This document shows, piece after piece, positions 863 through 54,744 of a stretch of DNA of 60,805 nucleotides. Source of the DNA: Erythrobacteraceae bacterium. GTDB taxonomy: Bacteria > Pseudomonadota > Alphaproteobacteria > Sphingomonadales > Sphingomonadaceae. The position numbers and the translations under genes are program-made. The stretch covers positions 26,276 to 87,080 of the forward strand of contig JAYPMZ010000001.1 of assembly GCA_038130205.1 (NCBI GenBank), given 5' to 3'. Position 1 is the first letter of the stretch, and each line of letters begins with the position of its first letter. The notes below the pieces were generated by a model. It made no database searches. It worked only from the letters and a program-made list of their open reading frames with translations, and had not been told where the DNA came from.

Positions 863-1720
863 ATGACGTTTCTACAACTGCTGATCATCGCGATCGTTCA
901 GGGGATTACCGAGTTTCTGCCGATTTCCTCGTCAGGACATCTGATCCTCATTCCGACCTTCACCGATTTTACCGATCAGGGACCGCTGATCGATGTCGCG
1001 GTGCATGTCGGTTCGCTGCTCGCGATCATCGTCTATTTCTTCAAGGACGTGGCGGTGCTCGCGCGGGGCGGCTTTGCAAGCATCGGTATCGGGGCCGACC
1101 GACCCGAAGCGCCTGCCGAACGCCGGCTCTTGTGGTGGATCGTCCTTGGAACCATCCCCGCCGTCGCCTTCGGTCTCGCGATCAAGCTCGGCGCGTTCAA
1201 TTCGCTGGCCGAAACCTTTTTCAACATAACAGTCGTCGACGACGATCTGATGGCGTCGATCCGCTTTACCGATCTGATTGCGACCAATCTGATCGTTTAC
1301 GGCATATTGCTCGGCATCGCCGACTTCATCGGCAAGAACGAAAAAGTGTTCGAGGACATGAGCTGGCGCGATGGCCTGATCGTGGGTCTGGCTCAAGCGC
1401 TGGCGATCATTCCGGGCACATCGCGCTCGGGTGTTACGATGACGGCGGCGCGCTTCCTCGGCTACAAGCGCGTGGAAGCCGCGCGCTTTTCCTTCCTCCT
1501 GTCGATACCGGCAGTGGCAGGGGCCGGTGTGCTGATCGTGCCCGAAATCTTCGAAGCGGGGGCAACGCTCGCATGGGATGCTCTGATTGCGGGCGTACTG
1601 ACCTTTATCGCCGCCTTTGCGACGATGGCGTTCCTGATGAACTTCCTGAAGCGCGCCTCGATGCTGGTTTTCGTCATCTACCGGGTGGCGATGGGCATCG
1701 CGCTGCTCTATTTCTTCTGA
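863..1720 (+). CDS. uppP: Undecaprenyl-diphosphatase
   Basis: QGITEFLPISSSGH and PGTSRSG motifs; multi-TM protein. Confidence 0.96.
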   Translation: MTFLQLLIIAIVQGITEFLPISSSGHLILIPTFTDFTDQGPLIDVAVHVGSLLAIIVYFFKDVAVLARGGFASIGIGADRPEAPAERRLLWWIVLGTIPAVAFGLAIKLGAFNSLAETFFNITVVDDDLMASIRFTDLIATNLIVYGILLGIADFIGKNEKVFEDMSWRDGLIVGLAQALAIIPGTSRSGVTMTAARFLGYKRVEAARFSFLLSIPAVAGAGVLIVPEIFEAGATLAWDALIAGVLTFIAAFATMAFLMNFLKRASMLVFVIYRVAMGIALLYFF

Positions 1721-1735
1721 TCGAAGGAGCGACCC

Positions 1736-1993
1736 ATGGCGATGATACTGCTGGTCATTTTAGGCGTGCTTGCGGGCTGGTTCGGCTCGATCGTCACCCG
1801 CAATGAAGACAAATACGCGATTCGGCGGCTGATCTTCATCGGCCTCGCAGCAAGCCTCGTCGTGGGCCTGCTGGTCAATGGCGGGACATTCCTCGGCAGC
1901 CTCGACTGGATCGCGATGGGCGCAGCGGTGCTCGCCTGCGTGGTAGCACTGGCGGGCTATCACTTTTATACGAAGCGCAAAGGCGCTGCCTAG
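1736..1993 (+). CDS. Small 3-TM membrane protein (transglycosylase-associated/GlsB-YeaQ-like)
   Basis: SD aaggag upstream; three hydrophobic segments, GVLAGW motif. Confidence 0.6.
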   Translation: MAMILLVILGVLAGWFGSIVTRNEDKYAIRRLIFIGLAASLVVGLLVNGGTFLGSLDWIAMGAAVLACVVALAGYHFYTKRKGAA

Positions 1994-2928
1994 ACTGCGG
2001 CTGCGTTGCTACCCCTGCCGCCGCGCAGCCAATATTCCTGCGTCCCGCGGTTCACCACATTATCGACATCGATGATCGCCGAGTTGGCATAGGTAAAGCT
2101 CGGCGCGAGATTGCGGTAGAGGCGGTCGAAATCACGCTCGACCGTTTGGCGGTAGAGATCATCGAAGCTCTCGATCACGAAATAGGTCGGTTGCAGGTCG
2201 CTGATGACGTAATCGGTGCGCATCACGCGGTCGACGTTGAGCATGATGCGATTGGGGCTCTTTGCCTCGACTGCAAAGCGCGCCTCGGTCGGGCCCGACA
2301 GGATGCCTGCCCCGTAGGCCTTGATGCCGTCGGCTTCCTCGATCAGCCCGAATTCGACCGTGTACCAGTAGAGCGCGCCCAGCGCCTTCAGCCGGTTATA
2401 GCGCATCGCCTTCCAACCGGCGCGGCCATATTCCTGCATGTAATCGGCATAGACCGGATCGGTCAGCATCGGCACGTGGCCAAAGACATCGTGGAAGACG
2501 TCCGGCTCCTGAATATAGTCGAATGTCTCGCGCGTGCGGATGAAATTGCCTGCCGGAAAGCGGCGGTTGGCCAGATGCCAGAAGAACACGTGATCGGGGA
2601 TCAGCATCGGAACAGGCACGACGCTCCATCCCGTGAGCTTGTCGAGTTCCTCGCTAAGCGTCTCGAATTCGGGAATACCGCCGCGCGAGAGGTCGAGCTT
2701 GTCGAGCCCCGCCATAAAAGCGCTTGCCGCGCGGCCCGGAAGGACGTCCATCTGGCGCGTGAAAAGCTCGTCCCAAATCGCGTGATCGTCGGTAGAATAA
2801 TTCGTCTGTTCGGGCTCGATCCAGTCCTCGCCCAGATGCGCAGGGCGGCGCAGGGGAGCGGTAAAGACAGCCTCGTCCATATCGGGTAGGCGGGAGTAAT
2901 CGATGTCTTGATCAGAGATCGTGGCCAT
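1990..2928 (-). CDS. phhA: Phenylalanine 4-monooxygenase
   Basis: EPDVFHDVFGHVPML iron-binding motif, LYWYTVEFGL, YGAGILS. Confidence 0.95.
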   Translation of the reverse strand: MATISDQDIDYSRLPDMDEAVFTAPLRRPAHLGEDWIEPEQTNYSTDDHAIWDELFTRQMDVLPGRAASAFMAGLDKLDLSRGGIPEFETLSEELDKLTGWSVVPVPMLIPDHVFFWHLANRRFPAGNFIRTRETFDYIQEPDVFHDVFGHVPMLTDPVYADYMQEYGRAGWKAMRYNRLKALGALYWYTVEFGLIEEADGIKAYGAGILSGPTEARFAVEAKSPNRIMLNVDRVMRTDYVISDLQPTYFVIESFDDLYRQTVERDFDRLYRNLAPSFTYANSAIIDVDNVVNRGTQEYWLRGGRGSNAAAV

Positions 2929-2988
2929 AATGTTTCAATTGATACTACCTCGCGCGCCGAACGACAACACTCAACCGGGATTTGACCT

Positions 2989-3768
2989 ATGGGCCTCAAA
3001 GGCAAGGATTATCGCAAGTTTCTGGAGCCCATGACCGAGGAACTTGTCGCGATGGCGCGCTGGGCCAAGGCCTCTGGCGCGCGGATCGTGGTGATTTTCG
3101 AAGGGCGCGACACGGCGGGCAAGGGCGGTGCGATCAGGGCGGTGCGCGATCAGTTGAACCCGCGTCAGTGCCGCACCGTGGCCCTTTCGAAGCCGAGCGA
3201 GGAAGAGCAGACGCAATGGTATTTCCAGCGCTATGCGAAACACCTGCCCCATGCAGGTGAAATCGTGCTGTTCGATCGCAGCTGGTACAACCGTGCAGGG
3301 GTCGAGCGGGTGATGGGCTATTGCACCGAGGCGCAGGCGGAGGCGTTCCTCGAAGCCGCGCCGGTGTTTGAAAAACAATTGGTGGATGACGGGATACTGC
3401 TCTTCAAATACTGGCTGACCACCGATCAGGACAAACAGGAAGAGCGGCTCAAGGAACGGCTCGAAGACCCGCTCAAGCGCTGGAAACTGTCGCCCGTCGA
3501 TCTCGCCGCGCGCGAGAAATACGAAGCCTATACCGAGGCCCGCGAGGCGATGTTGCGCGCCACCCATACCGCCTATGCGCCGTGGACGCTGGTCGACTTT
3601 AACGACCAGAAGCGCGGGCGGCTGACGCTGGTGCGCGACCTGCTTGATCGCTTGCCCGACACCCATGTCGCGCCTGCGCCGATCGAGTTTCCCGATCTCG
3701 GCCATGAACCGCACGCAGAAAGCTACGCGGTGATGGGGCCGATTTCGTCCTTTCCGGTTGAGGATTGA
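2989..3768 (+). CDS. ppk2: Polyphosphate kinase 2
   Basis: FEGRDTAGKGG Walker A, FDRSWYNRAGVERVMG, WKLSPVD. Confidence 0.95.
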   Translation: MGLKGKDYRKFLEPMTEELVAMARWAKASGARIVVIFEGRDTAGKGGAIRAVRDQLNPRQCRTVALSKPSEEEQTQWYFQRYAKHLPHAGEIVLFDRSWYNRAGVERVMGYCTEAQAEAFLEAAPVFEKQLVDDGILLFKYWLTTDQDKQEERLKERLEDPLKRWKLSPVDLAAREKYEAYTEAREAMLRATHTAYAPWTLVDFNDQKRGRLTLVRDLLDRLPDTHVAPAPIEFPDLGHEPHAESYAVMGPISSFPVED

Positions 3769-3784
3769 CGCAAGCCCCACTTCG

Positions 3785-3810
3785 ATATAAATATGATATC
3801 ATAATTATAT
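3785..3810. promoter_or_regulatory. 26-bp AT-rich palindromic operator upstream of the SPFH gene
   Basis: ATATAA-A-TATGATATCATA-A-TTATAT with one mismatched pair, directly before SD ggaggagg. Confidence 0.7.
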
Positions 3811-3827
3811 TGGAGGAGGTTCTTTCG

Positions 3828-4745
3828 ATGTCGGTTTCTATCACGGTTGCGGACCCCAGCAGCGAACGCGCGGGCTCTGCTTTCAATGGCTATGTCATGC
3901 TTGCGCTCATGGCCGCGTTTCTTGCGGTGATTCTGATCACGCTCACGCGGGGAGCGCCTCCCACCAATGCGCCTGGACTGGCGGTTCTCGCGTTCCTCGG
4001 CCCGCTCGCGATCTCGGCCTTTGGGATCCTCTTCATCGCGGCAGGTTTCTTCATGATTCAGCCAAATCAGGCGGTCGTCCTCACCCTGTTCGGCGAATAT
4101 CGCGGCACGGTGCGCAAGGACGGTCTGCACTGGACCTGGCCGTGGATTTCCAAGCAGAAGATCTCCGTTCGCGCGCACAATATCCATTCGGAAAAGGTCA
4201 AGATCAACGACCTGCGCGGCAATCCGATCGAGGTCGCCTGTAACGTGGTGTGGCGCGTGGCCGATACCGCGCAGGCAGTGTTCGATGTCGACGATTTCAA
4301 AGAATTCGTGAACATCCAGATCGAGGCAGGGCTGCGCACCGTGGGCGCGCGCCATCCCTATGATGATATGTCCGACGAAGACAAAACGACGCTGCGCGGC
4401 AGTGCCGATGTGATCGCAAAGGAACTGCGCGACGAATTGAACGAGCGACTGGCTGTGTCGGGTGTGAAGGTGGACGAGGCGGGCCTTACCCACCTCGCCT
4501 ATGCCCCCGAAATTGCGGGCGCAATGCTACGCCGCCAGCAGGCCGACGCGGTGATTGCCGCGCGCCAGAAGGTGGTGATCGGCGCGGTCGGCATGGTCGA
4601 GGATGCGCTCGAAAAATTGTCGCGGGACGGCATCGTCGAACTTGATGACGAGCGGCGGGCGGCCATGGTGTCGAACCTGATGGTCGTCCTTTGCGGTGAC
4701 CGCGAGGCGCAGCCGGTGGTCAACGCCGGTACGCTTTACCAATAA
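3828..4745 (+). CDS. SPFH/Band-7 domain membrane protein
   Basis: Two N-terminal TMs, KINDLRGNPIE, HLAYAPEIAGAMLRRQQA; ATG 3828 follows a strong SD. Confidence 0.9.
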   Translation: MSVSITVADPSSERAGSAFNGYVMLALMAAFLAVILITLTRGAPPTNAPGLAVLAFLGPLAISAFGILFIAAGFFMIQPNQAVVLTLFGEYRGTVRKDGLHWTWPWISKQKISVRAHNIHSEKVKINDLRGNPIEVACNVVWRVADTAQAVFDVDDFKEFVNIQIEAGLRTVGARHPYDDMSDEDKTTLRGSADVIAKELRDELNERLAVSGVKVDEAGLTHLAYAPEIAGAMLRRQQADAVIAARQKVVIGAVGMVEDALEKLSRDGIVELDDERRAAMVSNLMVVLCGDREAQPVVNAGTLYQ

Positions 4746-4767
4746 GACCACGTGCAAGGAGGCAGCC

Positions 4768-4971
4768 ATGGCTGCACCCCCAAAAAAGGCGTTTGCCTTG
4801 CGGCTCGACCCGGCGGTTCACGCCGCGGTTGAGCGGCTCGCGGGCGCGGAATTGCGATCGGCCAACGCCCAGATCGAAATTCTGCTGCGCGAGGCGCTTA
4901 AACAGCGCGGGATCGAGGTCGGACACACCAAGACGCCGAGGCGCGGGCGTCCGCCAGCAGACAGCGATTAA
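4768..4971 (+). CDS. Arc-family ribbon-helix-helix DNA-binding protein
   Basis: KKAFALRLDP beta-ribbon plus ELRSANAQIEILLREAL; SD aaggagg before ATG 4768. Confidence 0.8.
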   Translation: MAAPPKKAFALRLDPAVHAAVERLAGAELRSANAQIEILLREALKQRGIEVGHTKTPRRGRPPADSD

Positions 4972-5819
4972 AGCGAAGCGCTCGCCTTGGTGACTTGCCG
5001 TCCGTCGGATGCAAAGGCGCCAAGCTCGTATTCGCCATGCGCGCCCCGCATTACGAGGTTCAGCCCCTCTCCGGCGATAGCGGGCGAAACCCCGCGAAAC
5101 TCGAAGCGTTGCAGCGCGTTCTCGCCCAGCTCGCTCGCCGCCAGCCGCAGCAGCAGCGTGGCGATAAGCGGGCCATGCACCACCAGTCCTCGATAACGCT
5201 CGACAGCTGTCGCATATGGCGCGTCATAGTGGATGCGGTGGGTGTTGAAGGTCAGCGCCGAATAGCGGAACAACAGGCGCGGATCGGGCGTGATGGTGCG
5301 GTGTGTGCTCCATTCGGAATTGTCGAATTGGGCATCTCGCGGTGGAGGTGGGGTCAGCGGCACCTCTGGATCGGCCGCGTCGCGATAGACCAGCGTTTGT
5401 GTCTCTCGGATGGCTTCCTTGCCGTCCGCCCAAAGCGAATGGCTAATGTCGGTGAAGGCCAACGTGCCGCTGCGCCCTTCCTTGACGCTGACCGAGGCGA
5501 TCTCGCTCTCGCGTTCCACGGTATCGGGAAAATTGAGTGGGCGCAGGAATTCGATCGCGCTTCCCGCCCACATCCGGCGCGGAAGAGGGAAGGGAGGATA
5601 GATATTGTCGGCGTCATTGTCGCGGAGCGGATGCCCATCCTCACCCAGTGCGTCGGTGCGGGCTTCGGGCAAGCACAGGCAGAAGTGATAACCCTGCGGC
5701 ACGGGGTTCTCGAACGAAGGCGGCAGGTCCAGCGTCGCATACCAACGCTGGAGGTGTTCTGCCGTGACCATGTCGGTCTGAGCGGTTTTGCGCCCTACCC
5801 AGGAATCCCACTCGCTCAT
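4968..5819 (-). CDS. Double-hotdog MaoC-type hydratase, mesaconyl-C4-CoA (Meh)/itaconyl-CoA hydratase-like
   Basis: WVGR, DGHP, PRRMWAG, LLFRYSALTFNTHRIHYD, GLVVHGPL; start reassigned to ATG 5819. Confidence 0.85.
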   Translation of the reverse strand: MSEWDSWVGRKTAQTDMVTAEHLQRWYATLDLPPSFENPVPQGYHFCLCLPEARTDALGEDGHPLRDNDADNIYPPFPLPRRMWAGSAIEFLRPLNFPDTVERESEIASVSVKEGRSGTLAFTDISHSLWADGKEAIRETQTLVYRDAADPEVPLTPPPPRDAQFDNSEWSTHRTITPDPRLLFRYSALTFNTHRIHYDAPYATAVERYRGLVVHGPLIATLLLRLAASELGENALQRFEFRGVSPAIAGEGLNLVMRGAHGEYELGAFASDGRQVTKASASL

Positions 5820-5829
5820 CCTCGCACGC

Positions 5830-7056
5830 CTACGCAGCTCGCTCGAAAACGGCTGCGATACCCTGACCGCCACCGATGCACATGGTTTCGAGGCCGTATT
5901 TCGCCCCGCGCCGGTGCATTTCGGCGGCCATATCGGCAAGGATCCGCCCGCCGGTCGCGCCGATGGGGTGGCCGAGCGAAATGCCCGAACCGTTGACGTT
6001 GAGGATGTCGCGGCGGCTGTCGTCGGCGCTCCAGCCCCAGCCCTTGAGCACGGCAAGCACTTGCGGTGCGAAGGCTTCGTTCAGTTCGACAAGGTCGAAG
6101 TCATCCCAGCTGTAGCCGCGCCGTTCGAACAGACGCTGGGTTGCCGGAACCGGGCCAATGCCCATGCGCGAAGGATCGCAGCCCGCTGCGGCCCAACCGC
6201 CGAACCACAGGCTCGGCTCAAGGCCGAGTTCCTCAAGCTTGTCTTCGGCAACCACCAGACAGGCTGCGGCGGCATCGTTCTGCTGGCTGGCATTGCCTGC
6301 GGTCACGATCGCTTGCGGATCACGCTTGCCGTCGATGGCGCGCAGCGCGCCAAGCGTTTCCATCGAGGCATCGGTGCGATATCCCTCGTCATGGTCGAAG
6401 ATCACCGGATCGCCTTTGCGTTGCGGAACTTCGACCTTCACCAGATGATCGTCGAACTTGCCCGCTGCCCAAGCGGCGGCTGCGTTCTGGTGCGAGCGGA
6501 CCGCATAGGCATCGGCCTCCTCGCGGGTGATCGCATAATCCTTCGCCAGATTGTCGGCGGTTTCGATCATGCCGGTGATGATCCCGAAACGCTCGATCGG
6601 CTGGCTCATCAGGCGGCCCCGTGAGAGGCGATCATGGAGCGTCATATCGCCCATTCGCACACCGCCGCGCAGGTCGGTGGTGTAATGTTCGACCTGCGAC
6701 ATGCTCTCGCACCCGCCCGCGACCACTACGTCGGCCATTCCTGTTTCGACCATCATCGCCGCATTGGCGACCGCTTGCAGGCCTGAGCCGCAGCGGCGGT
6801 CCAATTGGTAGCCGGGAACTTCGAGCGGAAGGCCAGCGGCAAGCCACGACCAGTGGCCGATGGCGGGCGCTTCGGCATTGCCGTAGCCTTGGCTGAACAC
6901 CACGTCATCGACGCGTTCGGGGTCAATGCCCGAGCGTTCGACCAGCGCTTTTAGAATGACTGCGCCGAGCTGGCCTGCATTGAGGCTCGAAAGCCCGCCG
7001 AGGAACTTGCCGACAGGCGTGCGCAGGGGGGAAACAATAGCGGCTCTTCTGGTCAT
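5830..7056 (-). CDS. Acetyl-CoA C-acyltransferase (thiolase)
   Basis: RRCGSG, NEAFA, GHPIGATG, MCIGGGQG catalytic motifs. Confidence 0.95.
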   Translation of the reverse strand: MTRRAAIVSPLRTPVGKFLGGLSSLNAGQLGAVILKALVERSGIDPERVDDVVFSQGYGNAEAPAIGHWSWLAAGLPLEVPGYQLDRRCGSGLQAVANAAMMVETGMADVVVAGGCESMSQVEHYTTDLRGGVRMGDMTLHDRLSRGRLMSQPIERFGIITGMIETADNLAKDYAITREEADAYAVRSHQNAAAAWAAGKFDDHLVKVEVPQRKGDPVIFDHDEGYRTDASMETLGALRAIDGKRDPQAIVTAGNASQQNDAAAACLVVAEDKLEELGLEPSLWFGGWAAAGCDPSRMGIGPVPATQRLFERRGYSWDDFDLVELNEAFAPQVLAVLKGWGWSADDSRRDILNVNGSGISLGHPIGATGGRILADMAAEMHRRGAKYGLETMCIGGGQGIAAVFERAA

Positions 7057-7065
7057 GATCGGGTC

Positions 7066-8319
7066 CTAACGATTGTAGTGCTTGCCTTCGTCGCTGAGCG
7101 CGACGGTTCCGGCATCGATGAGTTTGCCAATGGCGCCGCTCGACAGGCCGAGCCGTTCGGCGAGCACTTCCTCGGAATGTTGGCCAAGGAATGGTGCGGG
7201 CGCAGGATCGCCAGCCTCGCGGCCCGGCACATTGGCGAAGCTGCGGGTAGCTGGATAGTCGAGGCCCGAGGGATTGGCGGGCGAGGGGCCGAACAGCGGA
7301 TTGTCGCTGACCAGCTGCGGGTCGCGCGCGGCTTCGTATGCGGTGCGGTATTTTTCGAAGGTGCAGCCATTGGCGGTCATGCGGCTCGAAAGATCGGACC
7401 AGTCCTGATTGCCTGCGATGGTCTGGAAAACCTCGAACAGCGCATGGCGGTGCTCGAAGCGCGGTCGGTCGCCGTCAGCGAAGCGAACGCCGAGTTTCGC
7501 TTCGAGTTCGTTGATCGGTGTTGCGGCGTCGAAGGCTTTGACCAGCCCGCCCCATTGTTTGGGCGTGAGCGCGGCAACCATGAAGCGAACGCCGTCTTTC
7601 GAGCGGAAATCGCGCCCGAATGCGCCCCAGATCGCATTGCCGAGCCGTTCGCGGTCTGCTCCGCGATAGAGCATCTCGGCCATGGTCCCCGAATTGGCGA
7701 GCGTCCCGATGGCTACATCGCCCAGCGGCACGCGCAATTCGCTGCCTTCGCCGGTCGCATCGCGGTGGCGCAGCGCGGCGAGCAGTGCAAAGGCGCAGTA
7801 AGCGCCGGTGATGAAGTCCCAGGCTGGCAGCACCTGATTGACCGGCGGCGCGGTTGCCATGTCCCAGTCTTCCGGCCCGCACATCAGCGGGTAACCGGCG
7901 GCGGCATTGACGGTGAAGTCCATCGCCTGCCGCCCGTCATGCCAGCCCATGATCCGCACCGAAGTCATGTCGGGCGCGCCTTCCGGTTGAGCAGCCTTCA
8001 TCGCCGCATGGCTTAGGAAGCTGTTTTCGGGCAGGTTGGTGATCGCATTACCCGTCTTCGCGGCCAGCGCCACGCACAGCTCGCGCCCTTCGCCGCTGCG
8101 CAGGTCCAGCGCGACCGATTTTTTAGCGCGGTTGAGGTTCTCCCAACTCAAGGAACGCCCTTCGCCGGTCAGCATGTAGCGGTCATAATCGAGCCCCCCT
8201 GCCGTGTGGTCGACGCGGATCACCTCCGCGCCCATCTGCGCGCAATAGAGGCCCGCAGTGGGAGAGGCGACGAAGCTGGAAACTTCGACGATCGAGAGGT
8301 CGTTCAGCAGCTTATACAA
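7066..8319 (-). CDS. Family III (CaiB/BaiF) CoA-transferase, mesaconyl-CoA C1-C4 transferase (Mct)-like
   Basis: SFVASP, GGLDY, NRAKKSVALDLR, VNQVLPAWD, GAFGRDF, APFLGQHS. Confidence 0.85.
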   Translation of the reverse strand: MYKLLNDLSIVEVSSFVASPTAGLYCAQMGAEVIRVDHTAGGLDYDRYMLTGEGRSLSWENLNRAKKSVALDLRSGEGRELCVALAAKTGNAITNLPENSFLSHAAMKAAQPEGAPDMTSVRIMGWHDGRQAMDFTVNAAAGYPLMCGPEDWDMATAPPVNQVLPAWDFITGAYCAFALLAALRHRDATGEGSELRVPLGDVAIGTLANSGTMAEMLYRGADRERLGNAIWGAFGRDFRSKDGVRFMVAALTPKQWGGLVKAFDAATPINELEAKLGVRFADGDRPRFEHRHALFEVFQTIAGNQDWSDLSSRMTANGCTFEKYRTAYEAARDPQLVSDNPLFGPSPANPSGLDYPATRSFANVPGREAGDPAPAPFLGQHSEEVLAERLGLSSGAIGKLIDAGTVALSDEGKHYNR

Positions 8320-8322
8320 GGC

Positions 8323-9516
8323 TCAACCGTGCTCCTTTGCCCATTCGCGCAGCATGTGCTTGGCGATCTGGAGCTGGAGGATCTGCGTCGTTCCTTCGTA
8401 AATGCGGTAGATGCGCGCATCGCGATAGAACCGTTCGGCGTCATATTCGGCGAGGTAGCCCGCGCCGCCATAGACCTGCACCACGCGGTCCACCACGCGG
8501 CCGCACATCTCGCTAGCGAAGACCTTGAACGCGGCGGCCTTGACGAGAATGTTCTCGCCGCGGTCGGCGCGGGCGGTGACGTCGCGCATCATCGCTTCGG
8601 CAGCGTAGATCTCGATTTCGCTGTCAGCGAGCATGGACTGGATCAGCTGGAAATTCGCGATCGGTTCGCCGAAAGCCTTGCGCTCATTGGCATAGCGGAT
8701 CGCGCTGTCGAGCGCGCGGCGGGCATAGCCGGCGGCTGTCGCGCCGACCGAAATGCGTCCGTTGTCGAGGCTCTTCATCGCAAAGACGAAACCCTTGCCG
8801 GTCTCGCCGCCGAGCAGCGCATCGCCAGGCACTTTCACGTCATCGAGCATGATGTCCGAGATATGCGAGCCCGACTGGCCCATCTTGTGATCGGGCGAGC
8901 CGGTCGAAACGCCCGGCGAATTCATCGGCACGAGGAAGGCGCTGATGTGCGCATTCTTGGGCAGCGCCTCTTTATTGGTGCGCGCCATGATCAGCGCGAC
9001 ATCGGCGTGTGGTGCGTTGGTTATGTACCGTTTGGTGCCGTTGAGTATCCATCCGTTCCCGTCAGGATCGGGCACCGCAGTGGTCGCAAGGCCTGCGCTG
9101 TCGCTGCCCGAACCCGGTTCGGTGAGGCCAAAGCAGGCAATCTTGCCCTCGGCCACCTTGGGGAACCATTCTTCCTTCTGCGCCTCTGTCGCGCCGTTCT
9201 TGAGCGCGCTCGTGAACATGCCGACATTGATCGAGAAGATCGAACGATAGGCGGGCGCGGCATAGGCGATGATGTTGATGATCCGCGCATACTGGCTGAT
9301 GTTTAGCCCTGCGCCGCCATATTCCTCGGGTACGGTCAGACCGAACAGGCCCATGTCGCGCATCTCGTCGATGATCTGGGGCGGGATCGCGTCATTGGCG
9401 ATCACCTCGGCCTCTGCCGGTATCAGCCGTTCGCGCACATAGCGGGTCAGCTGCTCGGCGAATTGTTCGAAAACATCGGCATCCATGCCGGGATTGACGC
9501 TCACGTCATTACTCAT
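8323..9516 (-). CDS. Acyl-CoA dehydrogenase
   Basis: FGLTEPGSGSD, LNGTKRYITN, GGAGY, RIYEGTTQI. Confidence 0.95.
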   Translation of the reverse strand: MSNDVSVNPGMDADVFEQFAEQLTRYVRERLIPAEAEVIANDAIPPQIIDEMRDMGLFGLTVPEEYGGAGLNISQYARIINIIAYAAPAYRSIFSINVGMFTSALKNGATEAQKEEWFPKVAEGKIACFGLTEPGSGSDSAGLATTAVPDPDGNGWILNGTKRYITNAPHADVALIMARTNKEALPKNAHISAFLVPMNSPGVSTGSPDHKMGQSGSHISDIMLDDVKVPGDALLGGETGKGFVFAMKSLDNGRISVGATAAGYARRALDSAIRYANERKAFGEPIANFQLIQSMLADSEIEIYAAEAMMRDVTARADRGENILVKAAAFKVFASEMCGRVVDRVVQVYGGAGYLAEYDAERFYRDARIYRIYEGTTQILQLQIAKHMLREWAKEHG

Positions 9517-9761
9517 TGTGCTGGTTCCGTTTGTTCGGTTTCGCCTTCGACCGGGGCGGATTCGGGTCCCGGCGAGGGCAGTACGCCGCCCGGCAGCTGG
9601 CGTGCTTCGAGCATTTCGGCCGCTTCATCGAGTGCACGCGCTTCGCCTTCGCTGACGCCGCCCGGCCCGCTGCTGTTGCCGGGGCCATCACCGCAGGCGG
9701 CGAGCAGGAATGCGGGCACGAGCAGGGCCGCGCTGCGAAGCGCCTTGCGCCGGATCGTCAT
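9513..9761 (-). CDS. Small lipoprotein
   Basis: Lipobox LAAC; GPGGVSEGEARALDEAAEML; ATGA overlap with the downstream acyl-CoA dehydrogenase. Confidence 0.75.
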   Translation of the reverse strand: MTIRRKALRSAALLVPAFLLAACGDGPGNSSGPGGVSEGEARALDEAAEMLEARQLPGGVLPSPGPESAPVEGETEQTEPAQ

Positions 9762-9764
9762 CGG

Positions 9765-10085
9765 TTACTCGACCTCGAGGTCGGCAGCAGCGGCGGCCGC
9801 TTCGGCAGCTTCTGCGGCAGCAGCGGCTTCGGCAGCTACGCTTTCGGCTGCATCGGCGGCTTCTTCGGCGGTCTGCAGGCTGGGTGCACGCTCTGAAGCG
9901 TCTGCGGGCGGGCCAAGTGCCTCGCTGTCTTCGACCGGCTCTTCGGTGATCGGCTCCAGCGCTTCTTCGGCCGGCATTTCGACCGTGTCGGGCATGGCTT
10001 CGGTCGATGCGTCGTCACTGCTGCCGCACGCTGCAAGGCCAAGCGCGAGGCTGCCGAGCATGGCACCTGCTACAAGCTTCTTCAT
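9765..10085 (-). CDS. Acidic low-complexity lipoprotein
   Basis: MKKLV...LAACG lipobox; SD gaggag; Ala/Glu-rich tail. Confidence 0.8.
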   Translation of the reverse strand: MKKLVAGAMLGSLALGLAACGSSDDASTEAMPDTVEMPAEEALEPITEEPVEDSEALGPPADASERAPSLQTAEEAADAAESVAAEAAAAAEAAEAAAAAADLEVE

Positions 10086-51102: not shown

Positions 51103-51643
51103 AGGTGATGCGCTTGAGCGCGATGGCCATGCCGTCGTCGTCGGTTGCGATCACCTCGCCATTGTCATCGGGCGGAGCGGTGGTCCAGCATGAGCCCGCG
51201 CCTTCGTCGGGTTCGAAACAGATCTTGCCGTCGGGCCGCTGCTCCCATTTGCCTTGCGCAAACGGCTCGCCGTTGCGCAGGTCGCGGTAGCGTCCGCCCG
51301 CATCGAAGAAAGTCGTCTGCACCGCGCCGTCTGCCCCCACCGTTAGCCAGCCGCTTTCGGCGACGGGCAGAGAGACAGTGTCGGGGGTTTCTTCGGCGGT
51401 TGGCGTCGCCTCGCTTCCGCCGGACAGGACATCCGCCGCGCCACCGCTGCTGCTTTCGTCGCAAGCGGCCAGCGCGAGCGGGGCAAAAAAGGCAAGGGCG
51501 AGTGCGGGTCGAAGCGGGATATGCATGGGGCGCGAGCCTAGTGCGCATTTGTGCGCAGGCCAAGCGCCTGATCACCGGCGTTGGCGCGAGGCTGCGATCT
51601 TGCTAAAGCGCGCAACAATAACACACAGCAGCGAAAGAGAGAG

Positions 51644-52825
51644 ATGCGCGCTACCCCCGATTTCGATTTCCAGCTTGGCGAAAGCGCCGAGATGATCCGC
51701 GACACCGTCGCCCGTTTTGCCGACGAACAGATCGCACCGCTCGCCGAAAAGATCGACCGCGAGGATTACTTCCCGCGCGCCGAATTGTGGGCGCAGATGG
51801 GCGAGCTTGGCCTTCACGGCATGACTGTCGACGAAGCCGATGGCGGGCTTGGCCTAGGCTATCTCGAACATGTCATCGCGGTCGAGGAAGTGAGCCGCGC
51901 CAGTGCCTCGCTCGGCCTGTCCTACGGCGCGCACTCCAATCTGTGTGTCAACCAGATCCGCCGCTGGGGCAATGACGAGCAGAAGGCGAAATATCTGCCC
52001 GGCCTGATCTCGGGCGAACATGTCGGCAGCCTCGCCATGTCCGAGGCATCCGCCGGGTCGGACGTCGTTTCGATGAAGCTGAAAGCCGAAGCCGCGACGC
52101 GCGACGGAGTGGAAGGCTATGTCCTCAACGGCACCAAGTTCTGGATCACCAACGCACCCGAAGCCGACACGCTGGTGGTCTATGCCAAGACCGACGGCAG
52201 CGCGGGTTCGCGCGGCATCACCGCTTTCCTGATCGAAAAGGGCGACGAAGGTTTCTCCATCGGCCAGAAGATCGAGAAAGTCGGCATGAAAGGCTCGCCC
52301 ACGGCAGAGCTGGTGTTCGACGATTGCTTCGTTCCCGAGGACCGCGTGATGGGACCGCTGAACGGCGGCGTCGGCGTGTTGATGAGCGGGCTGGATTACG
52401 AGCGCGTGGTGCTCGCCGGTTTGCAGCTGGGGATCATGCAGGCGTGCCTCGACACGGTCATTCCCTACCTGCGCGAACGCACCCAGTTCGGAAAGCCGAT
52501 CGGTTCGTTCCAGCTGATGCAGGCCAAGGTCGCTGATATGTATGTCGCGCTGCAATCGGCGCGCGCATATACCTATGCGGTGGCGAAAAGCTGCGACGCG
52601 AACCAGACGACCCGCTTCGACGCGGCAGGGTGCATCCTGCTGGCCTCCGAAAACGCCTTCCGCGTGGCGGCCGAAAGCGTGCAGGCGCTGGGCGGCGCGG
52701 GCTACACGCTCGACTGGCCGGTCGAACGCTACATGCGCGATGCCAAGCTGCTGGATATCGGCGCAGGCACGAACGAAATCCGCCGTATGCTGATCGGCCG
52801 CGAATTGATCGGGGCTGCGGGGTGA
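51644..52825 (+). CDS. ivd: Isovaleryl-CoA dehydrogenase
   Basis: SYGAHSNLCVNQI, LAMSE, LMSGLDYER, IGAGTNEIRRMLIGREL; neighbour of mccB. Confidence 0.93.
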   Translation: MRATPDFDFQLGESAEMIRDTVARFADEQIAPLAEKIDREDYFPRAELWAQMGELGLHGMTVDEADGGLGLGYLEHVIAVEEVSRASASLGLSYGAHSNLCVNQIRRWGNDEQKAKYLPGLISGEHVGSLAMSEASAGSDVVSMKLKAEAATRDGVEGYVLNGTKFWITNAPEADTLVVYAKTDGSAGSRGITAFLIEKGDEGFSIGQKIEKVGMKGSPTAELVFDDCFVPEDRVMGPLNGGVGVLMSGLDYERVVLAGLQLGIMQACLDTVIPYLRERTQFGKPIGSFQLMQAKVADMYVALQSARAYTYAVAKSCDANQTTRFDAAGCILLASENAFRVAAESVQALGGAGYTLDWPVERYMRDAKLLDIGAGTNEIRRMLIGRELIGAAG

Positions 52826-53127
52826 GCGGCAACGAAGACTACGTCTATGACGAAGTGAGCGGCGAGTGGATGCCTGCCAGCGAACTCGCTGCGCGGGAGG
52901 CCGCCGAGAACACCGTCGAGGTGCGCGATGCGGTGGGCAATCTGCTGGCCGATGGCGATCAGGTGACGTTGATCAAGGACCTTGAGGTCAAAGGCGCGGG
53001 GCAAACGCTCAAGCAGGGCACGTTGATCAAGTCGATCCGGCTGACCGGCGACGCGCAGGAAATCGACTGCAAATACCCCGGCATCAAGGGCCTCGTCCTG
53101 CGTGCCGAATTCGTGAAGAAGCGCTAG
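52822..53127 (+). CDS. PhnA/YjdM C-terminal domain protein
   Basis: DAVGNLLADGDQVTLIKDLEVKG...EFVKK; GTGA overlap with ivd. Confidence 0.85.
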   Translation: MSGNEDYVYDEVSGEWMPASELAAREAAENTVEVRDAVGNLLADGDQVTLIKDLEVKGAGQTLKQGTLIKSIRLTGDAQEIDCKYPGIKGLVLRAEFVKKR

Positions 53128-53136
53128 GGCTGAACT

Positions 53137-54744
53137 ATGACTGCACCCGTTCTCACCACCAAGCTTGACCGCGAGGCGCCCGACGCCAAGACGCGCTTCG
53201 AGCACAACAAAACGCTCGCAGCCGACCTTCGCTCCGCCGTTGCGGACGCCTCGCTGGGCGGGGCCGAGCGGCACCGCGAGCGGCACGTCAGCCGCGGCAA
53301 GCTGCTGCCGCGTGACCGCGTGGAGCGGCTGCTCGATCCGGGCTCGCCCTTTCTCGAAGTTGGCCAGCTGGCGGCAAACGGCATGTACGAAGGCGACGTC
53401 AACGGCGCCTCGATGATCGCCGGCATTGGCCGCGTTTCGGGCCGTCAGGTGATGATCGTTTGCAACGATCCGACGGTGAAGGGTGGCTCCTACTACCCGA
53501 TGACGGTCAAGAAGCACCTGCGCGCACAGGAGATTGCGCAGGAGAACCGCCTCCCGTGCATCTACCTCGTCGACAGCGGCGGGGCGAACCTGCCCTATCA
53601 GGCCGAGGTCTTTCCCGACCGCGAGCATTTCGGGCGCATCTTCTTCAATCAGGCCAATATGTCCGCGCTCGGCATCCCGCAGATCGCCTGCGTGATGGGT
53701 AGCTGCACCGCGGGCGGCGCCTACGTCCCCGCCATGTCCGACGAGACCGTGATTGTGCGCAACCAAGGAACGATTTTCCTTGCCGGACCGCCGCTGGTAA
53801 AGGCCGCGACGGGCGAGGAAATCAGCGCCGAGGATCTGGGGGGCGGCGACCTCCATGCCAAGAAATCGGGCGTGGTCGATCACCTCGCCGAAAACGACGA
53901 ACACGCACTTACCATCGTGCGCGATATCGTCAGCCAGTTGGGCGCGAACATGGGCGCGGCGAAGGATATCGCGCTCAAAGACCCGCGTCCGCCCAAGTTC
54001 GACGCCGAAGACCTCTACGCCATCATCCCCGAAGACGTGCGCGCGCCCTATGATGTGAAAGAGGTCATCGCGCGGCTGGTCGACGGCAGCGAATTCCACG
54101 AGTTCAAGGCACACTACGGCTCGACGCTCGTCTGCGGCTTCGCCCACATTTGGGGAATGCCGGTGGCGATCCTCGCCAACAACGGCGTGCTATTCTCCGA
54201 AAGCGCGCAGAAGGGCGCGCATTTCATCGAGCTTGCCTGCCAGCGCCGCATTCCGCTGCTGTTCCTGCAGAACATCTCCGGCTTCATGGTCGGCGGGAAA
54301 TACGAGGCGGAAGGCATCGCCAAACACGGCGCGAAACTGGTGACGGCCGTTGCGACCGCCACCGTTCCCAAGATCACCGTGCTGATCGGCGGCAGCTTTG
54401 GCGCAGGCAACTACGGCATGGCAGGCCGTGCTTATAGCCCACGCTTCCTGTTCAGCTGGCCCAACAGTCGCATTTCGGTGATGGGCGGCGAACAGGCGGC
54501 AAGCGTGCTCGCGACAGTCCACCGCGATGCCGACAACTGGACCGAGAACCAAGCCGAGGAATTCAAGGCCCCGATCCGCCAGAAATACGAGGATGAGGGC
54601 AACCCCTATTACGCCACTGCGCGGATGTGGGATGACGGAGTGATCGATCCCGCGCAAACCCGCGACGTGCTGGGACTGGCCTTTGCCGCCACGCTGGAAG
54701 CTCCGATTGCGGAAGCGCCCCGCTTTGGCGTGTTCAGGATGTAA
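53137..54744 (+). CDS. mccB: 3-Methylcrotonyl-CoA carboxylase beta subunit
   Basis: [43 protein letters not shown]. Confidence 0.94.

Follow-up and report, generated by a model that had tools for sequence, protein, structure and literature searches.

A conserved operon with an Mct-like CoA transferase in Erythrobacteraceae and its proposed role in the breakdown of methyl-branched dicarboxylyl-CoA esters

What does a coenzyme A (CoA) transferase resembling the mesaconyl-CoA C1-C4 transferase Mct do beside a thiolase, with no lyase gene next to it? The question is raised by a four-gene operon in a stretch of 60,805 nucleotides from a bacterium of the Erythrobacteraceae (assembly GCA_038130205.1, contig JAYPMZ010000001.1, positions 26,276 to 87,080), the whole of which we call the window. 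The genes are co-directional on the minus strand and encode an acyl-CoA dehydrogenase (ACAD), the transferase, the thiolase and a hydratase resembling the mesaconyl-C4-CoA hydratase Meh. The arrangement is real and conserved, and is in outline well explained. The best explanation overall, which we hold to be somewhat more probable than its negation, is that the operon supplies a methyl-branched four-carbon dicarboxylyl-CoA and drains it to pyruvate and acetyl-CoA.

The transferase and its partners in the operon

The transferase contains the motifs GGLDY, VNQVLPAWD and GAFGRDF, on which a preliminary description of the window had called it Mct-like, and that identity is borne out by structure, fold and tree. 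Its best relatives of solved structure are Mct of Chloroflexus (8APQ; E 1.9e-79) and then 7XKG of Roseiflexus, while the best intermolecular family III enzyme gives an E of only 8.9e-19. An AlphaFold model made with a 46-sequence alignment (predicted local distance difference test score 94.5) superimposes on 8APQ with a template modelling (TM) score of 0.91-0.94 and a root mean square deviation of 2.0, at 39% identity, for this predicted structure. In Mct the catalytic residue is Asp165, the carboxylate ligands are Arg47 and Tyr136, Leu43 is the cork of the entrance and adenosine is bound by Arg75, Phe101 and Arg104 (Pfister et al., PMC9813914). The transferase keeps Leu43, Arg47, Arg75, Asn100, Asp135 and Asp165 (L43, R47, R74, N95, D134 and D168 in its own numbering).

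The tree was made from 85 rows, those with fewer than 330 aligned residues or with stops having been dropped, by a quick method with midpoint rooting; Chloroflexus Mct was left out of it and compared through the structure search and superposition. In the tree 75 Mct-like rows, including the Accumulibacter-type Mct, stand apart from 10 intermolecular CaiB rows with SH-aLRT support of 100, and the transferase is with the former, in a 53-row, mostly sphingomonad subclade (support 98) apart from the Accumulibacter type. Taken together, tree, structure matches and residues point to an Mct-like enzyme in a subfamily of its own, for which intramolecular C1/C4 transfer of CoA on mesaconyl-CoA is the predicted reaction.

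The hydratase had been described as like Meh or the itaconyl-CoA hydratase Ich, and this also held: it matches the itaconyl-CoA hydratase structures 8KHG and 8HUC (E about 1e-45) and belongs to their double hot-dog sequence family, with 41-43% identity to Ich of itaconate clusters and 36% to the Accumulibacter-type Meh. The closeness to Ich structures, and the presence in the genome of a C4-type dehydrogenase and a CitE protein (see below), would suit use of itaconate, or of free methylsuccinate or mesaconate, with an intermolecular, Ict-like transferase and the hydratase as Ich. We think this quite unlikely, as the transferase groups with Mct and not with Ict-like CaiB proteins and keeps Leu43 and Arg47, which are tied to a sealed site, there is no match in the genome to an MmgE/PrpD isomerase, and itaconate clusters have neither the thiolase nor this ACAD. 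Nor are Ict, Ccl and MmgE/PrpD found here in one locus, as in the itaconate/methylsuccinate clusters.

The thiolase passes NF004853 (family PRK06205) with 676 bits against a cut-off of 551, has the canonical motifs (C89, NEAF, H363 and C393), matches PDB 5BYV with an E of 6e-123 and is 75% identical to the product of the gene at 150034-151245 of pISP0. That gene is linJ, identical to the gene for the UT26 beta-ketoadipyl-CoA thiolase, which yields succinyl-CoA and acetyl-CoA (Tabata et al., PMC5144681). Family PRK06205 is thus shared with LinJ of Sphingobium UT26 and Sphingomonas MM-1, but here the gene is with those for Mct and Meh and not with linGH and linI, and a methyl-branched substrate is predicted. 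Because of the identity to LinJ the thiolase likely acts upstream, releasing methylsuccinyl- or mesaconyl-C1-CoA, and that it is the source feeding the module we regard as moderately probable. We considered it as a retro-aldolase replacing the lyase and rejected this, as both catalytic cysteines and the NEAF and GHP motifs are kept. It is thus canonical, as had been described, and most likely feeds the module from upstream rather than standing in for a lyase.

The ACAD has its catalytic Glu374 in the motif IYEG and reaches no NCBIfam cut-off. It is 52% identical to the ACAD of an Acinetobacter cluster that we take, from its gene order, to be dca (adipate), and the thiolase of that cluster passes NF006001 (3-oxoadipyl-CoA thiolase). 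Two other assignments of the ACAD were rejected: the C1-type methylsuccinyl-CoA dehydrogenase Mcd (31% identity, and at 397 aa it lacks the N-terminal extension and the arginine motifs of Mcd) and the C4-type, PA0879-type, dehydrogenase (28% to the ACAD of itaconate clusters).

With regard to conservation, we surveyed 80 related loci with up to 8 kb on each side. The order ACAD-Mct-thiolase-Meh, which the preliminary description had made a point on which its reading could fail, is complete in 67, interrupted by the end of a contig in 7 and eroded in the other 6, and the close packing is confirmed, with gaps of 3, 9 and 10 nt. Among named relatives the closest are genomes of Erythrobacter and Qipengyuania; Erythrobacter sp. 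NAP1 and E. longus DSM 6997 have the operon as well.

Methylsuccinyl-CoA dehydrogenases and the lyase

The source genome (3.13 Mb in 348 contigs, 93.7% complete) has both types of methylsuccinyl-CoA dehydrogenase outside the operon. A 547-aa C1-type Mcd, beside valS on contig C45, shares 62-66% identity with the large ACADs encoded next to Mct in relatives, and one of those matches Paracoccus Mcd (6ES9) with an E of 3.5e-180. The motifs for Arg252, Ala285/Phe287, Arg376, Arg421 and Glu535 of Mcd (PMC5798300) are all intact in the C45 protein. The C4-type ACAD, on contig C15, is 62% identical to the ACAD of itaconate clusters. The earlier interpretation stands as a prediction in its chemistry, that of C5 methyl-branched dicarboxylyl-CoA esters with CoA shifted round the methyl branch. 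The ACAD of the operon is of neither dehydrogenase type.

Co-occurrence was assessed in 60 genomes of the genus, each at least 95% complete, and 250 of the family (251 for Ccr). In the genus Mct and Meh are each present in 59 genomes, Mcd in 28 and the C4-type in 53. The 59 with Mct comprise 22 with both dehydrogenases, 6 with Mcd only and 31 with the C4-type only; none has neither, where about 3 would be expected by chance, and the one genus genome without either dehydrogenase (G328) is also the one without Mct. In the family Mct is in 87 genomes, Mcd in 39 (38 of them Mct-positive) and the C4-type in 71, and one or other dehydrogenase is present in 74 of the 87 Mct-positive genomes against 20 of the 163 Mct-negative. 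In the Mct-positive part of the family the two types tend to stand in for one another (both 15, Mcd only 23, C4-type only 36, neither 13; Fisher p 0.002, such p values overstating the case because kin are not independent). The replacement is also seen at the same position in operons, with Mct>Mcd>Meh>lyase (L115, on plasmid pSHV1) against Mct>C4>Meh (L131), and SDR>ACAD>Mct>thiolase>Mcd>Meh (L126 and L129; SDR, short-chain dehydrogenase) against Mct>thiolase>C4 (L132).

The preliminary description had stressed that a lyase is missing. There is indeed no lyase gene in any of the 80 related loci within the distance surveyed, but one lies in the locus on pSHV1, and the genome has one CitE-family gene, stand-alone on contig C79, so that the lyase is largely not missing in truth and the C79 protein is the candidate for cleavage of citramalyl-CoA. 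The idea of a lyase hidden in the gap of about 900 nt that follows Meh in some relatives was rejected, the open reading frames (ORFs) there being on the opposite strand with no match to a lyase. A hydroxyacyl-CoA dehydrogenase had also been reported absent; there is none in this operon, but an SDR precedes it in relatives (SDR genes are present in 11 of the 69 distant loci described below).

It is also of note that a 1.6-kb contig (C311:156-1612, L213) of 67% GC, against about 62% for the genome, carries another Ich/Meh-like gene together with a fragment of a C4-type dehydrogenase. This could be an itaconate/methylsuccinate cluster that was acquired and is truncated by the assembly, with a lyase beyond the contig end, or contamination.

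The genome does not fit the pathways in which these enzymes are best known. Ccr is below cut-off in this genome and present in 0 of the 251 family genomes, so the ethylmalonyl-CoA pathway is not the one at work here, and Mcd has no source of substrate from that pathway; there is only one methylmalonyl-CoA-type mutase, and so no second (Ecm) mutase, and isocitrate lyase is present. The Mct and Meh homologues would be compatible with a partial 3-hydroxypropionate bi-cycle for co-assimilation of glyoxylate and propionyl-CoA, as in Accumulibacter, and Erythrobacter sp. NAP1 is known to have Pcs and Mcr. We consider this very improbable: there is no full-length Mch-like gene in the genome (the best match is 28% over 148 of 363 aa), the single CitE is 28% identical to the Accumulibacter-type Mcl, and inspection of the long ORFs by eye showed none that looked like Pcs or Mcr in this 93.7% of a genome. 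Further, in Accumulibacter-type loci Mct has Mcl and Mch as neighbours, which it never has in the 80 related loci. The bi-cycle set of Mcr, Pcs, Mch and Mcl with Mct and Meh is thus not present, in keeping with the catabolic reading given to the locus at the outset.

A proposed route and the points against it

We suggest the following route, in which the reactions and their direction, the substrate of the lyase and the growth substrate are predicted from genes, gene order, residues, homologies and co-occurrence. The DcaA-like ACAD and LinJ-like thiolase would shorten the CoA ester of a methyl-branched C7 diacid, for example 4-methyladipyl-CoA, with the thiolase cleaving 4-methyl-3-oxoadipyl-CoA to acetyl-CoA and 2-methylsuccinyl-C1-CoA. 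This could not go the ethylmalonyl-CoA way, as Mch and Mcl are lacking, but would have two exits. In one, Mcd would oxidise methylsuccinyl-C1-CoA first and Mct would then shift CoA on mesaconyl-C1-CoA, which is its known reaction. In the other, Mct would shift CoA from C1 to C4 on the saturated methylsuccinyl-CoA and the C4-type (PA0879-like) dehydrogenase would oxidise the product; this isomerisation is an undescribed reaction, predicted because 31 genus genomes hold only the C4-type. Both would give mesaconyl-C4-CoA, which Meh would hydrate to (S)-citramalyl-CoA for cleavage to pyruvate and acetyl-CoA by the CitE-type lyase encoded elsewhere. In the downstream C5 drain, from methylsuccinyl-CoA by way of mesaconyl-C4-CoA and citramalyl-CoA to pyruvate and acetyl-CoA, we have good confidence.

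As to what may feed it, carbon counting suggests that omega-oxidised phytanate or citronellate would give 2-methylsuccinyl-C1-CoA and (E)-phytenate or geranate would give mesaconyl-C1-CoA directly, and that methyl-3-oxoadipates from methylcatechols would give the C1 or C4 ester, which the plasmid Mct+Mcd pairs described below would fit. Any single named growth substrate is at best a doubtful choice.

Several observations weigh against this route. The transferase differs from Mct at Tyr136 (Phe, F135), Phe101 (Leu, L96) and Arg104 (Asn, N99), and scores only 290.8 bits on the TIGR04253 equivalog, for which the cut-off is 725, so that its substrate may differ from that of Mct. Phe at 136 is common to all Erythrobacteraceae rows, most other sphingomonad rows having Tyr there and Pro at 43. 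The Accumulibacter-type Mct, identified from the mcl-mct-meh-mch arrangement around it, is also below the TIGR04253 cut-off, at 557.6 bits, and across the phylum 24 of 351 genomes match the model and 0 pass. Six of the 80 related loci have lost the thiolase or Meh, and the thiolase is absent from many of the distant Mct-like loci. The label of the C4-type dehydrogenase is based on similarity to a gene known by its cluster context, not to PA0879 itself, and 13 of the 87 Mct-positive family genomes have neither dehydrogenase; these may include misses, as only 6-7 candidates were scored per genome, and a check for missed Mcd genes with an N-terminal query, which had no positive control, found them in 0 of 5 genomes. 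The C79 CitE candidate is only 28-34% identical to Ccl/Mcl-type proteins and falls below every NCBIfam cut-off (134 bits on NF038242, cut-off 375), and its co-occurrence with the operon is uninformative, since the family is present in 248 of 250 family genomes. For the C7 round the operon lacks both an enoyl-CoA hydratase and a hydroxyacyl-CoA dehydrogenase, and the homologue in this genome of the SDR of relatives is only 42-47% identical. Finally no expression data were found, the search of sequencing runs giving six runs with shares of 0.05-0.17.

The change at Tyr136 in all Erythrobacteraceae rows, together with the position of the Mct gene between those for ACAD and thiolase, would be in keeping with a variant of the reading in the preliminary description, in which the enzyme shifts CoA on a longer diacid with a beta-methyl block, such as 3-methyladipyl-CoA, so that ACAD and thiolase can beta-oxidise it from the free end, with the C5 steps secondary. 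There is a precedent in ThnP, which transfers CoA from one carboxyl of a cyclohexane diacid to the other and so makes the action of an ACAD possible (PMC11659651). We think it unlikely that this is the main function, as Mct co-distributes with Meh and the methylsuccinyl-CoA dehydrogenases, pointing to a C5 substrate, and Arg47 is kept, the change from Tyr to Phe removing only a hydroxyl. It is however compatible with our preferred route and does not exclude it.

Mct-like genes are also found well beyond these relatives. We examined 71 distant loci, hand-picked and of up to about 31 kb, of which 2 had no Mct. In the remaining 69 the neighbours are Meh (33), Mcd (32), LinJ-like thiolase (26), DcaA-like ACAD (23), SDR (11), C4-type dehydrogenase (9) and CitE (8), and thiolase adjoins Mct also in Betaproteobacteria (a Comamonadaceae) and on a Pseudonocardia plasmid. 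Mct+Mcd pairs lie between transposases on plasmids pCADAB1 (L114), pSHV1 (L115) and pAKD34 (L116), with an annotated rdpA about 10 kb from the pair on pAKD34. We take these plasmids or their hosts to be degraders of methylphenoxy herbicides, and the pairs may dispose of methylsuccinyl-CoA left by those compounds.

These loci bear on the possibility that the operon combines two unrelated functions, with ACAD and thiolase for beta-oxidation of adipate and 3-oxoadipate, and Mct and Meh clearing methylsuccinyl-CoA as a side product. In human metabolism methylsuccinyl-CoA arises in this way when propionyl-CoA carboxylase and methylmalonyl-CoA mutase take butyryl-CoA as their substrate, and here a carboxyltransferase gene is beside that for the one mutase on contig C84. 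DcaA-type enzymes act on unbranched C6 substrates. LinJ does so too (PMC5144681), and a housekeeping role would explain the presence in 59 of 60 genus genomes. Such a division of labour would leave unexplained both the thiolase beside Mct across three classes or phyla and the Mct+Mcd pairs on catabolic plasmids, and seems to us rather improbable.

Returning to the proposed C5 route, we can compare it with systems already described. Known Mct (8APQ) is alike in fold, identity, the residues Leu43, Arg47, Asn100, Asp135 and Asp165, and its Meh-like partner, but the present transferase is in a separate sphingomonad subclade, carries the three changes given above, has no Mch or Mcl, and is linked to thiolase, ACAD and methylsuccinyl-CoA dehydrogenases in a catabolic setting. 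The itaconate/methylsuccinate route has the Ich/Meh hydratase, C4-type dehydrogenase and CitE-type lyase in common, and also ends at pyruvate and acetyl-CoA, but is entered from the free acid through the intermolecular Ict, whereas here entry would be by a thiolase product at C1, rescued by the intramolecular transferase. The Mcd of the ethylmalonyl-CoA pathway (6ES9; PMC5798300) is represented by an orthologue both in this genome and next to Mct in relatives, and the three arginine motifs of its active site are present, but with no Ccr or full-length Mch its product would go to Mct and Meh and not to beta-methylmalyl-CoA. In anaerobic naphthalene degradation (ThnP and ThnO) thiolysis likewise leaves CoA on the wrong carboxyl, and ThnP corrects this intramolecularly before the next oxidation, but ThnP is of family I (Cat1), unrelated in sequence, and has a bicyclic-derived substrate in an anaerobic pathway (PMC11659651). 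The synthetic THETA/rGPS module (bioRxiv 10.64898/2026.01.16.699985) takes methylsuccinyl-CoA through Mct, Meh and Ccl, the same reactions as are predicted here, to pyruvate and acetyl-CoA; it is engineered and did not sustain growth of E. coli in that study, whereas the present set would be a natural one, predicted to be fed by catabolism.

In the open-access literature, subscription journals being outside our scope, we found no study devoted to the four-gene operon, nor one on catabolic use of Mct by sphingomonads, and the accessible part of PMC13491972 mentions neither Mct nor thiolase. All of the parts are from known families, but their combination and the catabolic use of this Mct subfamily appear to be undescribed.

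Surroundings of the operon and what the route would mean

The features of the locus are given in Table 1. The start of the hydratase gene is placed at the ATG at 5819, which follows a GAGG Shine-Dalgarno-like run, the mechanical ORF (6056-4968) overlapping the thiolase gene. The two small ORFs upstream (9513-10085) are alanine/glutamate-rich and lead the operon in many relatives, where the first has partial homologues and the second is conserved in its N-terminal part. The stop of the first overlaps the ACAD start (ATGA), and it is possibly co-transcribed with the operon. A scan for promoters and terminators gave nothing exceeding shuffled sequence.

Table 1. Genes of the operon and the small ORFs upstream of it (window positions)
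Feature	Position	Strand	Details
DcaA-like ACAD, adipyl-CoA-type clade	8323..9516	-	397 aa; Pfam ACAD domains
Mct-like family III CoA transferase, predicted intramolecular	7066..8319	-	TTG start, 417 aa; structure matches, alignment, tree
LinJ-like thiolase, family PRK06205	5830..7056	-	408 aa; NF004853 above cut-off
Meh/Ich-like double hot-dog hydratase, predicted mesaconyl-C4-CoA hydratase	4968..5819	-	283 aa; 8HUC/8KHG matches
Small lipoprotein-like ORF	9513..9761	-	ORF call; no Pfam/NCBIfam match
Second small lipoprotein-like ORF, upstream	9765..10085	-	ORF call; no Pfam/NCBIfam match

The six eroded operons (L095, L096, L101, L103, L106 and L108) are without Meh, thiolase or ACAD, and in L096 the thiolase is in three frames. 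The neighbours at 863-4971 of the window include genes for an undecaprenyl-diphosphatase and phenylalanine 4-monooxygenase, and others that by eye we take to be a PPK2-like ORF, an SPFH-like gene and a small Arc-like gene, the last two convergent on the operon.

Elsewhere in the window (about 51581-54744; C1:77925-81000) there is a leucine-degradation-like pair, named by reading as an isovaleryl-CoA dehydrogenase-like ACAD and a carboxyltransferase. A PF00682 search found no member of the size of 3-hydroxy-3-methylglutaryl-CoA (HMG-CoA) lyase in the genome, only LeuA and a DmpG-like aldolase, nor one in G002 and G003, both single-contig genomes, where the only match in each is long and LeuA-like; both have the carboxyltransferase at 91%. 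HMG-CoA lyase activity might be a second role of the CitE-family protein, which is nearly universal. The same source genome also has a catechol meta-cleavage cluster (C33:14111-14884, L003) with aldolase, acetaldehyde dehydrogenase, ferredoxin and dioxygenase-like ORFs.

Among the distant loci, a sphingomonad cluster (L138-L143, L146, L148 and L151) has paired ACADs, a CurA-like reductase, Mct, Meh, DcaA-like ACAD, LinJ-like thiolase, CaiB, SDR, crotonase and Mcd or C4-type dehydrogenase, with a CYP101-like cytochrome P450 beside Mct in L138-L140, L142 and L143. It is a candidate for a full terpenoid pathway ending in the Mct module, the terpenoid hint being for those loci only. In L117, L133, L145, L190, L202 and L121 Mct-like genes are found with an HMG-CoA-synthase/OB-fold protein and a thiolase-like protein of PRK06157; these two may act together as a retro-aldolase on substrates with a beta-methyl branch. 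Plasmid pNL2 of Novosphingobium aromaticivorans, a genetically tractable strain, has a Mcd-Meh pair behind a MarR regulator (L174, SARO_RS19850-19855).

If the proposed route is correct, it gives Mct-like genes, which automated annotation treats as markers of CO2 fixation, a role in catabolism; the papers that mention 2-methylfumaryl-CoA isomerase are, from what is accessible of them, mostly genome or metagenome surveys. It would explain why sphingomonads keep Mcd without the ethylmalonyl-CoA pathway, and would provide an exit from methylsuccinyl-C1-CoA, a compound that for C. necator has been described as a dead end (Gonner et al., PMC12290011). The segment from methylsuccinyl-CoA to pyruvate and acetyl-CoA, which has been hard to run in E. 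coli, would also gain a set of enzymes that are mesophilic and matched by nature.

More tentatively, and we would put this below an even chance, the module may be a general and undescribed end-pathway for isoprenoid and methyl-aromatic skeletons in Erythrobacter and many other sphingomonads, with the new Mct subfamily a methylsuccinyl-CoA C1-C4 isomerase as well as a mesaconyl-CoA one. This would allow omega-oxidised phytol-type chains to be burned completely, whether by carbon counting they end in 2-methylsuccinyl-C1-CoA or, with the 2,3-double bond retained, directly in mesaconyl-C1-CoA. In that case a segment known so far only from designed CO2-fixation cycles would have a natural version, core to an abundant marine genus.

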